DNA of 64,000 bases, taken from the NCBI GenBank assembly GCA_963803145.1, contig CAWDLW010000018.1:32001-96000 (forward strand), read 5' to 3'. The notes beneath the pieces are model-generated. The model ran no database searches. It was not told where the DNA came from and saw nothing but the letters and a program-made list of their open reading frames with translations. Positions 48,987 to 57,492 of the stretch are shown one piece after another. A program made the translations under genes and the position numbers. The stretch comes from Methanotrichaceae archaeon (GTDB taxonomy: Archaea > Halobacteriota > Methanosarcinia > Methanotrichales > Methanotrichaceae). Position 1 is the stretch's first letter. Each line of letters starts with the position of its first letter.

Positions 48987-49157
48987 GGATCTGAGCGCCT
49001 ATCTATCGATTGTGGTGGGCTTATATGCCCGCCATAAATATTGCATCGTTTGTTATGGACGGTTATCATAAATTATTTTAGTTAATAGTGCTGGCAGCAA
49101 TGTCATCAGATTGACCACTCGAAAGATCTATAGTAGATCAACACTTTGGAGGAGACT

Positions 49158-49475
49158 ATGGATTACCCATTCAAGAGAGGCTTCAAGCCCGATATCGAGA
49201 GAATTCGAATGGCTCTGGTGGAGGAGTTCCCAACTGAGATCCGCCAGGAGGAGGAAAAGCTTATCCTCAACTACGGCGCCATGAAGAGCATTGCTGTCTG
49301 GATCGAGAACAAGCGGCTGAACGTAGTAACGGAATCTACGCAAGGCTTAAGCGACAGCGTCATTTTAGATACAAATAAACGATTCAGAGATTTCCTTGAG
49401 AAGGCTACGGGCTACACCGCCAAGCAGAGGCTTCAGATGGCGAAGAAGGAGGTTTCAAAGGGAAAGGAGGATTAA
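49158..49475 (+). CDS. Conserved archaeal protein (DUF5611-like)
   Basis: MDYPFKRGFKPD...YGA...FRDFLEKATGYTAKQR. Confidence 0.8.
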   Translation: MDYPFKRGFKPDIERIRMALVEEFPTEIRQEEEKLILNYGAMKSIAVWIENKRLNVVTESTQGLSDSVILDTNKRFRDFLEKATGYTAKQRLQMAKKEVSKGKED

Positions 49476-49554
49476 GCTGTATCTTTCTCTTTAATGTAAG
49501 GATGATTCGTTTATCTTATCTCCAACAACCATATCGCCTGCTTTCCAGAACATT

Positions 49555-49785
49555 CCCCCAGCGAGGGGTTAGGGGCAGCCCGCGCGGCGACTGAGCGCGC
49601 TAGGAAGAACATTAGGTTTAGTTCCAAAATGCAGAGCGCCAGAAAAATAGCTTAGGCACTATCTTTTGCAGTAATTCTATTCATTTTCCACTTCACATTC
49701 CGGAGCGCCCGCGAGTCGCTTCGCTCCCGCGCTAGCTAAAACGGGGCTGTCGCTCAGTCGCCGCGACGGGCTAACGCCCTCCGGG
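49555..49785. repeat. GC-rich fold-back element
   Basis: AGCCCGCGCGGCGACTGAGCG (49577-49597) inverted at 49751-49772; outer GAGGGGTTAG / CTAACGCCCTC; internal GCGAGTCGCTTCGCTCCCGC hairpin. Confidence 0.75.
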
Positions 49786-49839
49786 ACGGTTCATATGAGG
49801 AGGTACAGGCAGGTTGGTTGACTACCCTTATTGTACAGT

Positions 49840-49869
49840 GATTTCTGATTTCCATTATAATCAGAAATT
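49840..49869 (+). other. Site A, copy 3
   Basis: GATTTCTGATT-TCCATTAT-AATCAGAAATT; the inner 10-bp arms form a perfect inverted repeat. Confidence 0.75.
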
Positions 49870-50098
49870 CCAAACTCGTTGGCTTACGTTCAGAGAATAA
49901 GAAGATCCAAAACATACTGACCGCTCTGCTCAAAAATTGGTATACATGTCATCTACCAAAACTATATCGTTAGTTACATCATTTGGCTACAATAGAAACG
50001 CATAGATGTTGCAAACCATCAAATAGGTGATGGGAATATGGTAAAATTGTTATAGTGGATATGGTACAAAATGCAAAGCATGTGGTAAGCAAGTAAGC

Positions 50099-50788
50099 TT
50101 GAATCCAAAAAGGCTGAAAGAGATAAAAGGTGGTTATACGCTAGATAATGTGATCAAGAAAGGAATCGAGATCGCTAAGCAAAATATACCTGTCTCTCAA
50201 AAATTGACTGTGCCAAAATCCGAGGCAATCAATATTCAAAAAAAGGAGACTGCCCATATTGAAGCCATTGGATTCGTTTATCTATTGCTGGATTGTTCTG
50301 GAAGCATGGAAGGCCAAAAGCTCAAACAGGCTAAGATCGGAGCATTGAAATTTGCAGGTGAAGCGATCGCTAAAGGATATCGCGTGGGATTGATCCAATT
50401 TGCATCAAGAGCCGTCCTTTCATGCGAACCCCAGCGAACACTTTCACATTTAGATAGCTCGCTAAGAGAGATACGGGCCAGTGGATCAACAAACATGACC
50501 GATGCTATCCAGTTGGCAACCCAAAAGCTTTTGGACAAAGGGCCACTTCGGAGTATATACATTGTAACTGATGGCATGCCAGATAATCCACAAACAGCTT
50601 TAGACGCCGCTCAACGAGCAAAGAAACATAGAATTGATATTATCACTATTGGGACAGATGACGCCGATGATGATTTTCTTAAAAAAATTGCCACGCGAAG
50701 AGAGCTAGGAATAAAAGTCTCACGAGATCAATTTGAGAATACAATTTCTTCGGTAGCAAAAATGTTGCCCCTACCTCCCGGCCATTAA
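50099..50788 (+). CDS. von Willebrand factor A domain protein (start uncertain)
   Basis: MIDAS LLDCSGSM, GSTNMTDAI, IVTDGMPD, ITIGT. Confidence 0.93.
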   Translation: MNPKRLKEIKGGYTLDNVIKKGIEIAKQNIPVSQKLTVPKSEAINIQKKETAHIEAIGFVYLLLDCSGSMEGQKLKQAKIGALKFAGEAIAKGYRVGLIQFASRAVLSCEPQRTLSHLDSSLREIRASGSTNMTDAIQLATQKLLDKGPLRSIYIVTDGMPDNPQTALDAAQRAKKHRIDIITIGTDDADDDFLKKIATRRELGIKVSRDQFENTISSVAKMLPLPPGH

Positions 50789-50800
50789 AGGAGTTAGATC

Positions 50801-52909
50801 ATGTCAGAAGATTGGGAGATGAAGTGGAAGGATTATTACGATATCTTAGGTGTCAAGAAGAATGCTAGTTCAGCTGAAATTGGGAAAGCTTTTAAATTAA
50901 TTTCAAAATTGTTCCATCCGGACAAGGTTGATAAGGAACTTGAAGAATGGGCAAAAACACGATTTCAGGAAATTGAAGAAGCTCGCAGAACTTTAGTAAA
51001 TAGCGAAATAAGAAAGAAATATGATTACGCGTGGGATAAACGTGATTGGGAGATGAAGTGGAAGGATTATTACGATATCTTAGGTGTCAAGAAGAATGCT
51101 AGTTCAGCTGAAATTGAGAAAGCTTTTGAACTAATTTCAAAATTGTTCCATCCGGACCTGGTTGATAAGGAACTAGAAGAATGGGCAAGAACACGACTTC
51201 AGGAAATTGAAGAAGCTCGTAGAACTTTAGTAAATAGCGAAATAAGAAAGAAATATGATTACGCGCGGGATAAACATGAAGACATTAGTACTGGACAGAG
51301 CTATGCAAGTGATTCAACAGCTAATCCTCCGAAATTCAAAGTTGATCCTCCTTACATTTACATTAGTGATTTGGAAGCTGGACAATCAAAAAATTTTCCG
51401 TTCGTTGTTAGAAATGAAGGTGGACCGTACAATGGCCAAATAGATGTCAGTAGTTCTAACTCCTGGATCAAAATAGCCGATAAATATAGGTTAGATCCTA
51501 ATGATGTACTACCTTATAAGGCTGATATAGAGGTCCACGGATCGGAAGGGGACAAAACTTACCTTGGAGAAATCGAAGTCACTTTAGAAAATGAAACAAT
51601 TCGTGTCCAGGTGGAACTTAAAACAAAACCAAAAGCCGAAGCCAGAAAAAGAGAAAAATCTCAAGCGGTTCCAAACATTAATAAATATTCAAATATTTCG
51701 AGGATATTGTCTGGGAAAAGAAAATATCTATTATCAATTCTCGCTGCACTTATGCTTATTTTCGCTGCACCCATACTTATTTTGATTTATTTTGAACATA
51801 ATAATTCATTTTCAAATTCAGTAATAATTCAATCCGATGATGGTAATAAATTGTGGAATGAAATCTTCCCCCATAATGATCTTAGGTGTGTTAGGCAGAC
51901 CAGTGACGGGGGGTATATTGCAGTAGGCGATACAAAGCCTTGGATTTTTCATTGTGCATGGTTGATCAAAACAGACATGTATGGCAACAAGCAATGGGAC
52001 AGATCATTCGGCTCTGTTGATTCTGGACGATCTGTTCAGCAAACCCGCGATGGTGGATATATTATAATCGGCAGCGCCGATTACAGTAACGATCAAAATT
52101 ATGCATGGATAATTAAGACTGATGCTAGCGGCAATAAGCAATGGGTTAAAGATTTTCGCGGACCAGATAATAGTTGGAAAGGTTTGGGAGAATCGGTTCA
52201 ACAGACTAGTGAGGGTGGTTATGTATTGCTAGTAGCACAAGAGAATGATCTATTATTGATAAAGACCGATGCTAATGGCAATGAACTGTGGTATAATAGC
52301 TTGGTAAAATATGAGAAATATGAGAATCCGCCTTATAATCAGCCCACCATTTATGGAAAATCCGTTCAGCAGACTAATGATGGTGGATATATCATAGTCG
52401 GTTCAGTAGTTTCCCAAGATACTGATAGTTTGGATGCGGGGATAATCAAGACTGATACAGAAGGCAAGATATTGTGGGATAGAACCTTCGGAGGACCCGA
52501 AATGGATGGAGGCTTTTCAGTAAGACAGACAAGTAATGGCGGCTACATAATTCTAGGTCACTCGGATTATAATGCTTGGCTGATCAAAACAGATGCCTTT
52601 GGCAATAAACTATGGAACAAATCCCTTGGAATTGATATGATGTGGTCCTGGACCGGAGATGCTCTATGGCAGACTAGGGATAGTGGCTATATTATAACAG
52701 GCAGGTCTCAAGGCAATGCATCGCTGGTCAAAACGAACGCTAATGGCGATAAAATTTGGGGTAAGACTTTTTTGAAAGATCATGATAGCTGGGGCAATTC
52801 AGTGCAGCAGACCGATGATGGAGGCTACATTATTGCTGGATGCACATTTGTAGATACAGGGAAATTTAATGGCATGCTGATTAAGACCGATGCAAACGGA
52901 AACGTGTAA
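50801..52909 (+). CDS. Two tandem J domains + Ig-like region + TM helix + extracellular beta-propeller-like repeats
   Basis: 2 x KDYYDILGV...FHPD...EIEEARRTL...RKKYD; TM YLLSILAALMLIFAAPILILIYF; 7 repeats QTxDGGYI...KTDxxGN..W. Confidence 0.92.
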   Translation: MSEDWEMKWKDYYDILGVKKNASSAEIGKAFKLISKLFHPDKVDKELEEWAKTRFQEIEEARRTLVNSEIRKKYDYAWDKRDWEMKWKDYYDILGVKKNASSAEIEKAFELISKLFHPDLVDKELEEWARTRLQEIEEARRTLVNSEIRKKYDYARDKHEDISTGQSYASDSTANPPKFKVDPPYIYISDLEAGQSKNFPFVVRNEGGPYNGQIDVSSSNSWIKIADKYRLDPNDVLPYKADIEVHGSEGDKTYLGEIEVTLENETIRVQVELKTKPKAEARKREKSQAVPNINKYSNISRILSGKRKYLLSILAALMLIFAAPILILIYFEHNNSFSNSVIIQSDDGNKLWNEIFPHNDLRCVRQTSDGGYIAVGDTKPWIFHCAWLIKTDMYGNKQWDRSFGSVDSGRSVQQTRDGGYIIIGSADYSNDQNYAWIIKTDASGNKQWVKDFRGPDNSWKGLGESVQQTSEGGYVLLVAQENDLLLIKTDANGNELWYNSLVKYEKYENPPYNQPTIYGKSVQQTNDGGYIIVGSVVSQDTDSLDAGIIKTDTEGKILWDRTFGGPEMDGGFSVRQTSNGGYIILGHSDYNAWLIKTDAFGNKLWNKSLGIDMMWSWTGDALWQTRDSGYIITGRSQGNASLVKTNANGDKIWGKTFLKDHDSWGNSVQQTDDGGYIIAGCTFVDTGKFNGMLIKTDANGNV
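50810..51277 (+). repeat. 234-bp in-frame tandem duplication of the J domain
   Basis: GATTGGGAGATGAAGTGGAAGGATTATTACGATATC at 50810 and 51044; near-identical DNA. Confidence 0.95.
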
Positions 52910-52972
52910 TCTTGTTCGCACCTAAATTAGTGTTAAGATAGAAGACCCATACTTTTAAATCAATATCGTTTA

Positions 52973-53145
52973 CTGTAGTCTCCAAGTTTTTGATTTTGCA
53001 TACAAAATATAAACAATCGGCTGATAAAATAATACTATATTTTATGATGATAGCACGAAATAGGTATACAACATTATCTAATTATGTTAAAATTAAATTC
53101 GGTTTATAAAGTTGGCGGTTGCAGCTAAAAACTTGGAAACTACAG
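52973..53145. mobile_element. MITE (173 bp) with IS701-like ends
   Basis: 19-bp TIR CTGTAGT(C/T)TCCAAGTTTTT; 7-bp TSD TCGTTTA (52966-52972 / 53146-53152); no ORF. Confidence 0.9.
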
Positions 53146-53436
53146 TCGTTTAGTTAAATATTCAAGCTTTCTGTAAAAATGAAGCGAAGTGGTATCATCT
53201 CATTTTTATGGCACGGCCTGGTATTTTAATCTCTAGTTTTAGGCAGTAGAATAAGATTCTCGTATTTTATATTTATATAACAAAATGGTGATTTTTTAAG
53301 CACATATTTCATTACTTGCCTGAATTTTTGATCCAAGACATATAGTAAACTATAATTACCAATTGCTATACTTGCTTTCCATTAGGATAGAGACGCTCTA
53401 TAAACGAGCGATGATTAGATGGAAAAAGAAGTAACT

Positions 53437-53628
53437 ATGTCCACAAAATTCAATCATTGCCCAAACTGAGGGAGAATACCAGGCAAAAGCCTCTTTGGCG
53501 GTACACATATTAACATATTTGAATGTAAAAAATGCGGCTCTTGCTATTGTAATAAGTGTGGTGATGGGCGATGCCCTAATTGTGGTAGCAGGGAGAACAA
53601 GAAGGCTGGAGAAGTTTATGAGAGATAA
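53437..53628 (+). pseudogene. 63-codon multi-CxxC zinc-finger gene with in-frame TGA at a Cys position
   Basis: MSTKFNHCPN*GR...ECKKCGSCYCNKCGDGRCPNCGSRE...; TGA at 53467-53469. Confidence 0.75.
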
Positions 53629-53640
53629 GGAGATAGGACT

Positions 53641-53757
53641 ATGGAGACACAAACTAAGGGGATATTAGCCCTTGCCCTGTTTAGTATTGGGACCATATCC
53701 ATGTGGCGGCAAGCATTTCGATCAACTATAATTAATGTTGCTCCTCCTCAGAGGTGA
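53641..53757 (+). CDS. 38-aa putative membrane peptide
   Basis: METQTKGILALALFSIGTISMW...; fills the gap between the Zn-finger and TPR genes. Confidence 0.4.
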   Translation: METQTKGILALALFSIGTISMWRQAFRSTIINVAPPQR

Positions 53758-53763
53758 TCAAAA

Positions 53764-54333
53764 ATGGGATTCCTAGATAAGCTCAAAGGCAAAGAAACAA
53801 AGAAGGATAAACCTCAAACCGAAGCGACAAACGCAAATTCCTCATCTGAATCAAAGAGCGATCCCTACGATTTGAATCTTGATGGAGTTGACAGAGGATA
53901 TTCAGCCGTGGTTAGAAGAGATAAACAAGGAAAATCAAGTGGTGACTGGCAGCTAGATGGCATTGGGATCGTTTATCATGGGGGCAGTATTGATGAGGCC
54001 ATCGAGTGTTTTAATAAGGCATTAAGAATTGACCTCGAAGACCAAGGCGCTTGGTTAGGCAGAGGATACTGCCTGATGTCACTTGGGGTCTATGACAAAG
54101 CAATTGCTTGCTTCAAAGAGATCATTAAACTAGATCCAGATGTAGTTGCAGATTGTTGTTTTGCAGAGGCATGGAACAAGATGGGGCAATGTTATGAGGC
54201 TATGGGTAACGAAGGAGAAGCAAGAAACGCTTATTCTAAGGCTAGTGAATGGGGACACACAAAAGATGGCGATACATATCCTGAACCATATCCTGGGTTA
54301 GACAGAAGCCCTCTAAAAAAGATCCCTGATTAG
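53764..54333 (+). CDS. Cytoplasmic TPR protein
   Basis: MGFLDKLKG start; DEAIECFNKALRID..AWLGRG; AEAWNKMGQCY; GAGGTGA RBS. Confidence 0.9.
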   Translation: MGFLDKLKGKETKKDKPQTEATNANSSSESKSDPYDLNLDGVDRGYSAVVRRDKQGKSSGDWQLDGIGIVYHGGSIDEAIECFNKALRIDLEDQGAWLGRGYCLMSLGVYDKAIACFKEIIKLDPDVVADCCFAEAWNKMGQCYEAMGNEGEARNAYSKASEWGHTKDGDTYPEPYPGLDRSPLKKIPD

Positions 54334-54704
54334 ATCATCCAACGAATTTGAGTATGTATATCTTCTTTTTTGTATCTTCGGAGCCAGAATACTATTTTAT
54401 AAATACCTTCTTCGATTGCAAAGGCATGGGTTGGCGCTCCAGATTCTATGCCTATACAAACAACGCCCAGTGCTATTATAGATGTGTTATTCACCGCGTA
54501 GCTAAGAATTTCAAGAAAGATACCAAAAGAGATTATTTGGGGGCGCATAATGGCGTAGGTTACGGCGCCATTTCAGTCAAGTATATCCATTCAGGGCCTT
54601 CATTCAATACGAGTTCATATCTTCAGCAGCGCCGCACACCAGACAAATAATCCATGCACCTCCGATTCTTTTATTATTGTTGTAGTAGTATCAATTGGCA
54701 TCAT

Positions 54705-54848
54705 TTAACTCATTTGTTTTCCACATATTTTGCATTTAGAGCCATATTTATAAACGCAATTCTTACAAGCAAAATGTCCATTTAGACATACTTTTCCACC
54801 AGAGACTTCTGTCTCTTTTCCGCAAATATCACATGTTCTTTTTGGCAT
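54705..54848 (-). CDS. 47-aa stand-alone C3HC4 RING-finger protein
   Basis: MPKRTCDICGKETEVSGGKVCLNGHFACKNCVYKYGSKCKICGKQMS = C-x2-C-x11-C-x3-H-x2-C-x2-C-x7-C-x2-C; GAGGG upstream. Confidence 0.85.
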   Translation of the reverse strand: MPKRTCDICGKETEVSGGKVCLNGHFACKNCVYKYGSKCKICGKQMS

Positions 54849-54920
54849 ATCTGCATCCCTCAAAATATTTATATTTAAATTGTATTAGTCCATAGATGCC
54901 GGTTCTGTATATGCGAATAT

Positions 54921-54945
54921 GTGCGGGGAATAAGACCCCCGCACC
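54921..54945 (+). repeat. Hairpin B, copy 4
   Basis: GTGCGGGGAATAAGACCCCCGCACC; about 30 upstream nt also resemble copy 3 (CAT.GAT.C.GGTTCT.TAT). Confidence 0.72.
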
Positions 54946-55013
54946 AACTATGCTAGGCATGACCTAAAGCACACTAACTAGCCGGATCGAGGTAATTCAT
55001 GTTCAGGCCAACT

Positions 55014-55153
55014 TCACCTTATAATGGTACCGCATATTTTACATATATTACCGTGGTTTTTTCGGCAACTTTCGCATGCAAAATGGCCCTTGGCACATAC
55101 TCCGCCGCCCCATGCCTCTCTCTTCCGCATATATCACATTTTCTTTTTGTCAT
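55014..55153 (-). pseudogene. Second C3HC4 RING paralog, frameshifted in an (AG)4 run
   Basis: MTKRKCDICGRE / AWGGGVCAKGHFACESCRKNHGNICKICGTIIR*; 140 nt versus 144 nt for the intact copy. Confidence 0.82.
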
Positions 55154-55224
55154 GTTTTCATTCCCCTCATACGTTATATCTAGACTACATTTCTTTTATA
55201 ACTATAAACTAGATACTATAAACA

Positions 55225-55584
55225 TCAGGTGGCACCAGGTTTTATAACTTCTTCACCATTCCATTCTTTGGCTAGCTTTAAATGCCATGCAAGTTTATCA
55301 GGCACTTTCCTAATATCGCCCTCTAAATTAGCTATTAAAGCTATACGATCACGTTTAAATTCTATTCCATTCACAAAATCGTAAGCATAAAAATATTTAG
55401 TCTTTCCAGTTTCAGGATCGCTCGGCTCTATCCAATATAAAGCCGGTAAACATACGTTATATTTTTCTAGCAATTGTTTTTCATCATCAGTCAAAGTTAA
55501 TTTTGCATTCAATACAAATTCCAAACCCGATCCAGATAAGATGCCTTTCTTTGAGTTTTGCGTCCTGCGAAGATGCAATTCCAT
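55225..55584 (-). CDS. Hypothetical protein
   Basis: MELHLRRTQ...FVLNAKLTLTDDEKQLLEKY...WNGEEVI; GAGG RBS. Confidence 0.7.
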   Translation of the reverse strand: MELHLRRTQNSKKGILSGSGLEFVLNAKLTLTDDEKQLLEKYNVCLPALYWIEPSDPETGKTKYFYAYDFVNGIEFKRDRIALIANLEGDIRKVPDKLAWHLKLAKEWNGEEVIKPGAT

Positions 55585-55949
55585 ATAGACCCTCAATTGA
55601 TTTTTTAGGCATGTTCAACCTCAATTAAAAGCGGCAAACTTACCTCGCCGAAGTATTACAGTGTGGGCATTTTCCATTTCTCAGGTGTGTAGCATACCCA
55701 AGCTTCACAACGCGGACAATATTTTATACTTATCTCACGTTCTTCGCTACAGTAAAAATACTTATGTCTCATATTTCTCCCCTCTTGATGTAAAATATTT
55801 CCTTTTTGGGTTTATCAGTAATAATACGGTATATTTAAACCTACGCTAATCTAATTATCTATAATAAAAGTATGATAAAAACTCATTTATATAAAATCCT
55901 TACCTGGGGTAGAATAGCTGGAATATACACGTTGATCCTACCGCCTTGA

Positions 55950-56063
55950 GTATGTATAACCTGTAAACTTTCCTTTTATTTTTAGCGTCTTCAAAGCCAA
56001 GATACTGTTTTTATAAACATCTTTTCGACCTACAAAGGCATGGATTTGCGCTCCGGATTATAC
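55950..56063 (+). repeat. Element C, copy 3
   Basis: GTATGTATAACCTGTAA...TTTTTATAAACATCT...AAGGCATGGATTTGCGCTCCGGATTATAC. Confidence 0.85.
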
Positions 56064-56391
56064 AGTGCATTTCTATTTTAGCCGCTGTCGAAAAATCTCT
56101 ATCGGTCAATTATCGAAAATTCGTTCTATAAAGTATATGAACGATAAGTTAGGAAGAGGGCTAGCTAGGTCAATCTTTAAGAATTCTGCGAGTTGTATAA
56201 CCTGCTACGGTTAATTGGCGAGGTGAGTATGTTTAACATCAAAATAGCTAAGAGTCTGAAGTTCCTTGCCTCTCCAAATCCCATACCTTGAGCATTTTAT
56301 CCCATAATTCGATACCGTATCGTAAAAGCCGAGGGAGCGCTTCATATCAACATGGTCGGAATACGAGCCAATTCGCTTCTTAGGATGTTGA

Positions 56392-57492
56392 CTAGAAAAT
56401 TCTCAGCCCCCCTCTCACAAACTCTTCCACCAGTTCGTCAGTGCTCTCGAGGTAGTAATCGATGATAGACTCAATTTTTGATTTCAATGCCTCTGTGAGC
56501 TGAAGATCTCCAGCAATCTTCACGCCTTTCAATAGAGGTTGATCAATCGGCGAGCCGATCTTACTCACCAAAGTCACGTAAGCCTCTTTTACCCCCTCAA
56601 GCTCCGCAATGTCCGAAGCTGCGCGCATCCCCAAGACGTTATAGATCTTTCCAACATGGCTGACTGGATTTTTGCCAGCTATCGCCTCCATCGTCATCGG
56701 CCTCATGGGAGTTATCAGGCCATTTCCGCGATTGCCCCTGCCAGTTGCTCCGTCATCGCCCATCTCAATTGATGTGCCTGTAACTGTGAGGTAAAGGTTA
56801 TCTTCTGTATCTGCTGCATTCACGCTCACATTCGCATCTGCGGCATTCTTTAGAACCGCCTCCCTAACACGGTCCTTGGTTTCGTAATAATCGTCACGCG
56901 ACAGAATATATTTTGAGAGCATTGCGGCAGCTACTACTATATCGAGATCATCTCCCATGCGCACAGCCATAATCTTGGTATCCTCACCCACTCCACGGAT
57001 GCCATGTATCACATCATCCAGATCCAGAACAAGCCTTTCAATAGAATCCAGGGGTGCAAAACCTACGCCGATTGAAGTATCGTTCGCGCCACGACCAATC
57101 AGGCTCCGGAGCTCAGGAGCCCCCTCCGCAATCCTAGGCTCGATCCTGAATTCCTTAAGGCTCTTTAAGGTCGCGCTAAAAAAAGAGGTGACCGCATCAT
57201 CGATAATCTCATTTACAGCTTTCGCAGAGGGAGTTGTTGCTCTCCCTCCAACCACAACCGATGGCGGTGCAAGTATCGATCCTCCTCCGAACTCAGGACG
57301 GCTCTTGCCAGCAATTATGAGAACCTTATCGACATTATAATGCATTATTTGGCCGAACTCCTCCAAATAAAAACGACATAATGCTACAGATATCGATTCT
57401 GAGACCCCATCTGCAAGTGTATCCGGGTGGCCAATGCCTTTGCGCTCAACCGCTTCGAAAGGAGGAACTATATGCTTCTGGATTGTGATCAT
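56392..57492 (-). CDS. mat: Archaeal-type S-adenosylmethionine synthetase
   Basis: [58 protein letters not shown]. Confidence 0.96.

Follow-up and report, generated by a model that had tools for sequence, protein, structure and literature searches.

A conserved pair of vWA and membrane J-protein genes on archaeal and bacterial-type contigs that probably brings Hsp70 to a membrane receptor

Introduction

In the vWA-MoxR chaperone pairs (RavA-ViaA, CbbQ-CbbO and BchI-BchD), a gene for a von Willebrand factor A (vWA) domain with a metal ion-dependent adhesion site (MIDAS) lies directly beside the supplier of ATP-driven remodelling. A comparable arrangement, in which the neighbour of the MIDAS vWA gene encodes a membrane-anchored J protein, is the subject of this study; it comes from a stretch of 64,000 nucleotides of a Methanotrichaceae archaeon (GenBank assembly GCA_963803145.1, contig CAWDLW010000018.1), to which we refer as the window. 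Where Hsp70 acts, and on which substrates, is set by J proteins, whose J domains recruit it and trigger its ATPase; to our knowledge, the non-canonical J proteins of archaea are almost unexplored. Among prokaryotic membrane-anchored J proteins of class C, DjlA, with its TerB-DnaJ architecture, exemplifies a type that localises DnaK to the membrane. In Sulfolobus, the pair ArnA-ArnB consists of a zinc-ribbon-FHA protein and a vWA protein. Finally, passages of Kaur et al. 2020 (PMC7159879) treat vWA proteins as peptide-binding adaptors or co-chaperones of MoxR ATPases, and present GAP1-N2 GTPase systems with HSP70-GrpE and FNIII-DnaJ, in which tetratricopeptide repeats (TPR) are an alternative fusion.

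A sequence-only reading of the window had pointed to an AT-rich island with a MIDAS vWA gene 12 nt ahead of a gene for a J-J-Ig-transmembrane (TM)-propeller protein, followed by a Cys-rich zinc finger, a TM peptide, a TPR protein and two convergent C3HC4 RING genes, several of these members decaying; it had proposed an undescribed envelope-sensing, chaperone-coupled module for protein tagging or conflict. Here we show that the vWA gene and the J gene stay together as a conserved, closely spaced unit, on archaeal as well as bacterial-type contigs. The pair probably brings the cell's Hsp70 to a membrane receptor, and is best viewed as an undescribed but conserved cassette, a variant of the chaperone-plus-vWA theme. 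In the following, G, L, P and C stand for genomes, loci, proteins and contigs, G000 being the window's own genome, an assembly of 4.13 Mb in total in which the window spans C18:32001-96000.

Results

Conservation of the vWA-J gene pair

Our metagenome scan was seeded by an alignment of the J domain and the sandwich domain that follows it, and since no vWA protein was part of this seed, the adjacency of vWA genes to its matches is unbiased. The scan yielded 44 loci, 11 of which bear the sandwich. Directly upstream of the J-sandwich gene, nine of these 11 have a vWA gene of one specific family, which is missing from this position in L022 and L025; a further locus, L040, presents a vWA gene followed by the start of a J gene that runs off the contig end. 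With the window and L040 included, the pair is found in the same order in 11 of 13 loci, at spacings that range from a 4-nt overlap to 30 nt. The contigs vary between 32 and 61% in GC content, and the neighbouring genes are of bacterial type in some of them (PBP1, DnaG, GyrA, and proteins resembling pilins of type IV secretion systems, T4SS) and archaeal in others. The earlier suggestion of an undescribed module is upheld by this recurrence, and the same comparison of neighbourhoods also brought to light an unnamed family, p123, alongside a cassette in G072, members of the RING-like family near J-domain genes in L025 and L095, and a RING-like gene together with TPR genes and a homologue of a 38-residue zinc-ribbon-like protein, zf38, in G016.

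Among the 105 genomes of the order, all of one family, strong matches to the vWA protein occur in two, G000 and G072, and the J gene is adjacent in both. In G072, the vWA gene is followed by that of a 320-residue J-sandwich-TM protein; the p123 homologue comes after another 1.7 kb, in the same orientation. The alignments of metagenome locus L024 are identical to those of this G072 locus. In a sample of 401 genomes from the phylum, the sandwich-bearing form is confined to the window's own genome. Scanning genome contigs with the single vWA protein as query gave no match. Neither did a tblastn search of plasmids and phages with the sandwich domain or a scan of viral contigs with the J-sandwich alignment, and PHROGs yielded nothing beyond generic matches, of unknown function, for the vWA, J and TPR proteins.

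A second unnamed family, F5, recurs next to or upstream of the J-sandwich gene in L025 (3118-4239) and L028 (676-1305), the two members sharing 36% identity (E = 2e-28) and an ERCRPGRVQQ motif; a HEAT-repeat gene also lies upstream in L028. Beside the cassettes of two bacterial-type contigs (L026 9283-11342, L030 7042-8170) we further noticed a gene for a solute-binding protein with three to four genes for T4SS-pilin-like small membrane proteins, downstream of the cassette in one and upstream in the other.

Architecture of the two proteins

The window's vWA ORF has an unequivocal Pfam VWA match (E = 1.5e-19, 71.3 bits against a cut-off of 23.8), contained in the stop-to-stop frame 50045-50785, and its MIDAS residues D65, S67, S69, T131 and D158 (DxSxS, T, D) are invariant in all 10 aligned family members. 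Matches of the family profile in the PDB include an archaeal protein labelled 'VWA2' (5a8j, E = 1.4e-7), Rpn10 and BatB. The end of the window's vWA ORF is separated by 12 nt from the start of the 702-residue J ORF, so a MIDAS vWA gene at this distance from the J gene had been recognised correctly.

In the J protein, the Pfam DnaJ model (PF00226) matches two stretches (E = 1.8e-31, 108.5 bits against a cut-off of 27.8), and both copies contain the HPD tripeptide. Across 12 homologous sequences H34 and D36 are invariant, while P35 is found in 11, the remaining one reading HLD. The homologues have a single J domain in the alignment (P0045 and P0062, for example). An AlphaFold model of the second J domain and the domain that follows it, built from a 12-sequence alignment, reached a mean pLDDT (predicted local distance difference test) of 82. 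It shows a J domain of four helices, which superimposes on that of DNAJB8 (Z = 11.0, root-mean-square deviation (rmsd) 3.8 over 86 residues), and an eight-stranded sandwich, for which the best match among solved structures is the SPD-2/ASH domain of CEP192 (7ptb_A, Z = 12.0, rmsd 2.2 over 99 residues), with further matches to the PapD-like domain of HYDIN (2ys4, Z = 9.7) and the MSP domain of VAP-A (Z = 8.5). As the Pfam scan of this stretch matched no family, the likeness to PapD, ASH and MSP domains is one of fold. Of the architecture read from the sequence, the tandem J domains, the TM segment and the propeller stand, whereas the supposed Ig domain is PapD/ASH/MSP-like by structure match.

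One hydrophobic helix, at approximately residues 310-332, is preceded by the basic cluster GKRK, which, by the positive-inside rule, would place the N-terminal part of the protein in the cytoplasm. The C-terminal half contains a blade motif of about 50 residues seven times, six of them found by regular expression and the seventh, near residue 363, by eye, and is 35-47% identical to many surface repeat proteins named delta-60 or PQQ-like propellers in their sources. What follows the helix differs between loci: a propeller in the window and L023, leucine-rich repeats in L022, BNR repeats in L030 and L031, sequence without a family match in L026 and L032, and short or multi-TM tails in L024, L025 and L029.

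Table 1. Features of the island and its surroundings, in window coordinates (aa, amino acids; D and I, direct and inverted repeats; MITE, miniature inverted-repeat transposable element)
Feature	Position	Strand	Remarks
Left junction	49476..50044	.	mostly interspersed repeats; empty site in G001, G002 and G016
Remnant of a third RING-like gene	50045..50098	+	C-terminal 18 codons, open up to the vWA start; inverted repeat I1 (39 nt) shared with RING1
vWA protein	50099..50788	+	229 aa, TTG start, cytoplasmic, complete MIDAS; Pfam VWA
Membrane J protein	50801..52909	+	702 aa: tandem J domains, PapD/ASH-like sandwich, single TM helix, seven-bladed propeller
Tandem J duplication	50810..51277	+	234-nt repeat (D1) producing the second J; 11/234 mismatches
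MITE-like element	52970..53146	.	177 nt, 20-nt terminal inverted repeats (I2)
Double zinc-ribbon gene, broken	53419..53628	+	in-frame TGA 53467-53469 in place of a knuckle Cys (CPxCG)
38-aa ORF with one hydrophobic helix	53641..53757	+	ORF only; same frame as the ORFs before and after; no Pfam match
TPR protein	53764..54333	+	189 aa, 3 repeats; TPR_1 E 6.2e-20, 70.6 bits vs cut-off 27.8
RING1, C3HC4 miniprotein, intact	54705..54863	-	52-aa ORF; internal ATG at 54848 (47 aa) likely the true start
RING2, RING1 paralogue split by frameshift	55014..55153	-	two overlapping frames hold the N- and C-terminal halves; direct repeat D5
p123, unnamed family	55225..55596	-	homologue by G072 cassette, E 2e-10; AlphaFold2 pLDDT 93.4
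zf38, zinc-ribbon-like ORF, first Cys lost	55656..55772	-	38 aa; 61% identity to a G016 ORF keeping CxxC...CxxC
Right junction	55773..56391	.	interspersed repeats (D7, D11), also at 54337-54448

Proposed function of the pair

What could such a pair do? Its functional core would be a two-gene operon of a soluble MIDAS vWA protein and a single-pass membrane J protein, the latter with a cytoplasmic part composed of the J domain (duplicated here) and the PapD/ASH-like sandwich, and with an interchangeable binding domain outside, here the seven-bladed propeller. The J domain would bring DnaK to the membrane, where the vWA protein, and perhaps the sandwich too, would hold or present a client or partner for remodelling by DnaK; the variable ectodomain may couple this action to an external ligand or surface structure, by binding or by sensing. 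This would make the pair a counterpart, driven by Hsp70, of the vWA-MoxR chaperone pairs. We infer the localisation of DnaK and the presentation of a client from the recruitment of Hsp70 and stimulation of its ATPase by J domains, and from the action of MIDAS vWA proteins as adaptors or co-chaperones. Around this core, p123, the small zinc-binding proteins (RING-like, zinc ribbon and, at L028, DnaJ-type CxxCxGxG) and the TPR and HEAT proteins may act as dispersed, Hsp40-like client-binding accessories rather than as a ubiquitin-type ligase. Taken as a whole, namely as an Hsp70-recruiting membrane receptor with a vWA adaptor and loosely linked accessory client-binding genes that are partly decayed in the window, we give this proposal about an even chance of being right.

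The chaperone coupling put forward earlier is plausible on the strength of the conserved HPD motif and of the host's complement: the window's genome has a single dnaK-dnaJ locus, arranged as an operon, with one HSP70 gene (on C31), and the 702-residue protein is the sole J protein beyond this locus. The DnaK of G000 ends in ten consecutive glutamines and then an acidic tail, with no EEVD motif. As to envelope sensing, an outward-facing, interchangeable domain fits sensing as well as binding, but a sensor role proper is something that we purely infer.

A receptor of this kind might also serve conflict or immunity, its diversifying ectodomain detecting a virus or foreign cell at the surface and signalling via Hsp70 and the vWA protein to an effector. 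The distribution of the cassette is patchy (two of 105 genomes in the order and, among the 401 of the phylum sample, the window's own genome alone), it is located in an acquired island, its ectodomains are swapped among homologues, and passages of Kaur et al. 2020 (PMC7159879) describe vWA co-chaperone systems, as well as HSP70-GrpE systems with DnaJ-β-sandwich fusions, as conflict systems. However, none of eight proteins matched a PADLOC defence model, bar one sub-threshold hit (E = 0.003, 15.6 bits over 23 residues), and neither the window nor the scanned neighbourhoods contain a nuclease, protease, pore or other effector domain; the neighbours are mostly housekeeping genes, and the phage, plasmid and viral-contig collections returned no match. 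We consider such a role quite improbable, and the conflict module of the sequence-only reading finds no backing in PADLOC.

The pair lies in an acquired, repeat-rich island

The GC content is 39.1% in 49476-56391 and 45.4% in the remainder of the window, which confirms the AT-rich island. To its left lies a DUF5611 gene (49146-49475, Pfam E = 4.8e-29), and to its right the gene for an archaeal S-adenosylmethionine (SAM) synthetase (56392-57492). In G001 and G002, which are both congeners, and in G016, a gap of 10-90 nt separates these two genes, leaving an empty site. Given this near-contiguity, 49476-56391 constitutes a horizontally acquired, strain-specific insertion of 6.9 kb, particular to the window's genome. 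The vWA protein, the RING protein and the p123 profile are without a match in either congener. Among the island ORFs we saw no integrase and no tRNA gene, and an Rfam scan of the island returned nothing credible. The DUF5611 orthologue of G016 (G016:C134:8483-8794) contains one in-frame TAG, for which a pseudogene, a sequencing error or pyrrolysine are possible explanations.

By blastn against the whole genome and the resulting coverage histogram, the non-coding DNA of the island largely consists of interspersed repeats. A family at about 49496-49630 has some 90 genomic copies, several of which are lined up at intervals of 1-1.7 kb on C8 at 430-500 kb, and one at about 49697-49886 has some 17; the repeats on both sides of the minus-strand genes have about 15-20 copies of 72-82% identity, and 55915-56210 is a further repeat-filled interval. 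The 177-nt MITE-like element has copies of 99.4% identity on C8 and 96% on C21, which suggests that it was mobile recently.

Such surroundings invite an alternative, in which the vWA-J pair alone is the unit, whereas the small genes for TPR, RING-like, zinc-ribbon, p123 and zf38 proteins would be cargo or debris without relation to it, gathered in a repeat-rich insertion hot spot. Besides the repeats and the near-identical MITE, the state of the small genes agrees with this: four of those for zinc proteins are broken or degenerate, namely the RING remnant, RING2, the double zinc ribbon and zf38. The decay of several members had been noticed before and is borne out by the TGA codon in the zinc ribbon, the frameshift in RING2, the truncation of the RING remnant and the Cys loss in zf38.

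Candidate accessory genes

The Cys-rich zinc finger of the sequence-only reading is indeed a Cys-rich protein, a double zinc ribbon, but its frame is interrupted by the TGA codon. We rejected selenocysteine at this codon, because aragorn found no tRNA-Sec among the 40 tRNAs of the genome. The TPR protein stands as described, with three repeats and a TPR_1 score above the cut-off; its ORF is preceded by a ribosome-binding site, GAGGTGA, overlapping with the stop before it. The three ORFs for the zinc ribbon, the TM peptide and the TPR protein (53419-54333) share one reading frame with single stops (TGA, TAA, TGA) and no frameshift. We considered a single gene split by three stops and rejected it, as the common frame is all that speaks for it and the TPR gene has a ribosome-binding site of its own; a zinc-ribbon-TPR protein at L029 lends no support either, its similarity being of generic TPR kind.

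Small zinc-binding proteins accompany other cassettes as well. Scanning for CxxC...CxxC patterns, we found genes for such miniproteins within 2.5 kb of six of the 13 cassettes (the window, L022, L023, L025, L028 and L029), a raw count without a matched control. They encode a 53-residue protein with eight ligands 200 nt after the J gene in L022, a 47-residue zinc ribbon 112 nt before the vWA gene in L023, the RING-like protein of L025, the zinc-ribbon-TPR protein before the vWA gene in L029 and, between the HEAT and vWA genes of L028, a 62-residue protein with four CxxCxGxG repeats. The latter matches the models of stand-alone DnaJ-type zinc-finger miniproteins, DnaJ_CXXCXGXG (E = 6.9e-7, 29.9 bits against a cut-off of 32.7) and BSD2_CRD (E = 1.3e-5), a likeness which suggests that zinc miniproteins may serve as client-binding parts of a dispersed Hsp40-like set. 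Unlike these, the window's own are RING-like or zinc ribbons and not of the CxxCxGxG type.

RING1 follows exactly the ligand spacing C-x2-C-x11-C-x3-H-x2-C-x2-C-x7-C-x2-C, in agreement with the consensus of C3HC4 RING fingers. RING fingers of prokaryotes have reportedly been described before, by Burroughs and colleagues in 2011. The best Pfam model for RING1 is Prok-RING_2 (E = 0.003, 18.2 bits against a cut-off of 22.4), and other RING models score 14-20 bits on the family against cut-offs of 25-29. In a search of the PDB, a profile of six sequences matched mostly RING E3 ligases, best of all RNF4 (E = 6.7e-4) and also PEX12, CBL, MAT1 and TRIM proteins, and the two pieces of RING2 match the RING hidden Markov model (HMM) at E = 2.3e-9 and 6.9e-4. 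The RING identity proposed earlier is putative, backed by the C3HC4 spacing and by profile matches that all stay below the gathering scores of Pfam; the two genes are not convergent but in tandem, both on the minus strand, the second being frameshifted.

The family is rare, being found in three of 105, two of 146 and one of 201 genomes in three taxon samples, and a scan of viral contigs with its alignment gave no match. In L025 its gene is found 2 kb ahead of that for the J-sandwich protein, in the same orientation; in L095, a Bacteroidota locus, the gene for a J-TM protein (Pfam DnaJ, 6.4e-20) is found 0.8 kb upstream of it. The G016 gene stands beside TPR genes, the N-terminus of whose product resembles the window's TPR protein, and a zf38 homologue, with no J gene on the 6-kb contig; a weak TPR-like gene and zinc-ribbon genes flank that of L092 (Bathyarchaeia), and a TerB gene lies directly upstream in L094 (Chlorobiales). 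A 323-residue Chlorobiales protein with an HPD motif next to the RING gene is unsupported as a J-domain protein (hhalign E = 0.064; no Pfam DnaJ match). The RING genes of G090 and G502 sit on short contigs with uninformative neighbours; in G502, a fragment downstream looks TerB-like by eye and has no Pfam match. Two proteins of the family combine the RING with further zinc-binding segments, P0273 with a double zinc ribbon and P0275 with two CxxCxGxG motifs seen by eye and unmatched by Pfam. Like described prokaryotic RING families, ours comprises small C3HC4 proteins, six of which match Prok-RING_2, Prok-RING_4, zf-RING_5 and zf-C3HC4_3 weakly; it differs from them in scoring below the gathering cut-offs and in its neighbours, which are J, TPR or TerB genes instead of genes for ubiquitin-like (Ubl), E1, E2 or JAB proteins.

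One might take the RING-like miniproteins for E3 ligases of a ubiquitin-like tagging system that relies on host factors and is coupled to Hsp70 as in eukaryotic chaperone-assisted degradation. The exact C3HC4 spacing and the predominance of RING E3s among the PDB matches would be expected of such proteins, TPR and J proteins are encoded in the same island, and the p123 homologue of G072 has a gene for an E1-like protein, ThiF, at a distance of 1.4 kb. All RING matches are sub-threshold, though, one or two zinc ligands are missing from the L095 and L090 members in the family alignment, and DnaK has no EEVD-type tail for TPR binding. Furthermore, none of the scanned cassette and RING loci, the window included, has an adjoining gene for an E1, E2, Ubl or JAB protein or for a dedicated Hsp70. 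The ThiF gene of G072, the one E1-like gene, is paired with TusA and looks like part of a sulfur relay. On balance, an E3 function is most improbable, and the protein tagging envisaged earlier is unsupported, the scanned neighbours including no E2, Ubl, JAB or dedicated Hsp70 gene.

In the order of minus-strand transcription, the RING genes are preceded by zf38 and p123, which are spaced 59 nt apart; both are located in or next to the span of the sequence-only reading, from which they were absent. The p123 family is large, a profile of three sequences finding 609 representative clusters at E ≤ 1e-3, of which 137 reach E ≤ 1e-10, and its members are mostly stand-alone proteins of 105-130 residues. 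Pfam gave no match for p123, and stray single weak matches in three of 51 members pointed to no common family; NCBIfam (seven members) and PHROGs (four members) gave no family-level match, and in a protein atlas both p123 and RING1 fall into clusters of 'hypothetical proteins' only. With the predicted model, fold searches reached at best E = 0.26 in Foldseek against the PDB, Z = 4.5 in VIA-align against 48,161 chains and E = 0.053 in BFVD. Two members, P0128 and P0152, are triple repeats with three matched stretches each. P0157 is fused to a DnaJ_C domain (E = 1.3e-7, 32.2 bits against a cut-off of 26.6) and a zinc ribbon, and five of 21 other longer members have zinc ribbons as well.

In the order, p123 occurs in three of 105 genomes, two of which are the cassette genomes, at the same loci, so that both Methanotrichaceae cassettes are accompanied by it. 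In the third genome, G083, a broken p123 gene lies beside that of a 606-residue P-loop protein (GANGSGKS) and other unnamed genes (L112 6583-8403, 9194-9557). In G072, the genes for ThiF, TusA and an NFACT-R_2-domain protein (L024 12438-14510) lie beyond the p123 homologue; the ThiF-TusA set is probably a sulfur relay unrelated to the cassette.

How firmly, then, do these genes belong with the vWA-J pair? Several observations weigh against the broader proposal. No zinc miniprotein is encoded near seven of the 13 cassettes, and since archaea commonly have small zinc-ribbon genes, some of these would be neighbours by chance in any case. Among the 12 cassette loci other than the window, 10 lack the RING family and 11 lack p123, and the broken G083 copy of p123 has no cassette within 9 kb. 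A J protein recognisable at Pfam level is found near one of six RING-seeded loci, four of whose contigs measure only 1.7-6 kb; J and RING genes are additionally neighbours in the window and in the J-seeded L025. The RING assignment itself, made from the Cys/His pattern and from profile matches below every Pfam cut-off, is putative, and several homologues of the J protein have almost no ectodomain with which to sense.

The absence of RING, TPR and p123 genes from most cassettes elsewhere, and the cassette-free contig of G016 that has RING, TPR and zf38 genes, would be natural if all of these were cargo or debris. That explanation leaves unaccounted for, however, why p123 sits by both Methanotrichaceae cassettes and yet in just three of 105 genomes, and why the RING family, for all its rarity, has a J-domain gene no more than 2 kb away in the window, L025 and L095, with a remnant abutting the vWA start; it also has to contend with the DnaJ-type zinc-finger miniprotein just upstream of the L028 vWA gene and with the p123-DnaJ_C fusion. 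We regard debris as possible, if on the doubtful side. For the proposal of an Hsp70-recruiting receptor with accessory genes, the link between these genes and the cassette is suggestive, but not established.

Discussion

With the vWA-MoxR pairs, our cassette has in common that a MIDAS vWA gene adjoins the source of ATP-driven remodelling. It differs in that no AAA+ MoxR match was found among the island ORFs or the scanned neighbours of the cassettes, and in its partner, a membrane-anchored J protein with an ectodomain that would borrow the Hsp70 of the host. As a membrane-anchored class C J protein, this partner resembles DjlA, the model of which in NCBIfam, however, scores 38.7 bits against a cut-off of 162 and covers the J domain only, without any TerB match; moreover, the order is reversed, the J domain being N-terminal and followed by the TM helix, and DjlA lacks the ectodomain and the vWA partner seen here. 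One link to the DjlA class is the RING-family gene of L094, which directly follows a TerB gene.

The GAP1-N2 systems, as set out in passages of Kaur et al. 2020 (PMC7159879), resemble the cassette in their fusion of a J domain to a β-sandwich and in being patchily distributed multi-gene systems, but the loci scanned here have no GTPase, no dedicated HSP70 and no GrpE, and the sandwich is PapD/ASH-like instead of consisting of FNIII repeats. ArnA-ArnB offers a further parallel, since there too a cytoplasmic vWA protein of an archaeon has a partner with a zinc ribbon, and in view of the PDB match 5a8j; there are no FHA or kinase partners in our case, and the similarity of the vWA domains is generic. 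Full-text literature searches retrieved no description of a vWA gene paired with a J-domain gene, and Malinverni et al. 2023 (PMC10410713), who surveyed some 280,000 J proteins, mention neither vWA or von Willebrand nor PapD nor transmembrane in their main text; the supplements of that survey might list such architectures.

One may go a step further and ask whether the cassette defines an undescribed class of Hsp70-coupled transmembrane receptors common to archaea and bacteria. Its members would consist of a swappable ectodomain (propeller, leucine-rich repeats or BNR), one helix, the sandwich with the J domain, and the vWA adaptor, with dispersed Hsp40-like parts (zinc miniproteins of RING-like or DnaJ type, p123 as a protein of new fold, and TPR or HEAT proteins) that, together with the adaptor, would act on a cytoplasmic target once the ectodomain is engaged, as a chaperone-based device for signalling or immunity. 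We hold this wider generalisation to be unlikely, but were it true, it would bring RING-like and TPR proteins into a prokaryotic pairing with Hsp70.

Independently of that generalisation, the analysis brings out two unnamed families: p123, with its 609 clusters, a confident model and no match in the PDB, and a rare RING-like miniprotein that recurs by J, TPR and TerB genes. For the vWA-membrane-J pair itself, the reading that we prefer would mean that the cell surface can be connected with the Hsp70 machine in a novel manner, and the pair would stand as the Hsp70 counterpart of the well-known vWA-AAA+ pairs.

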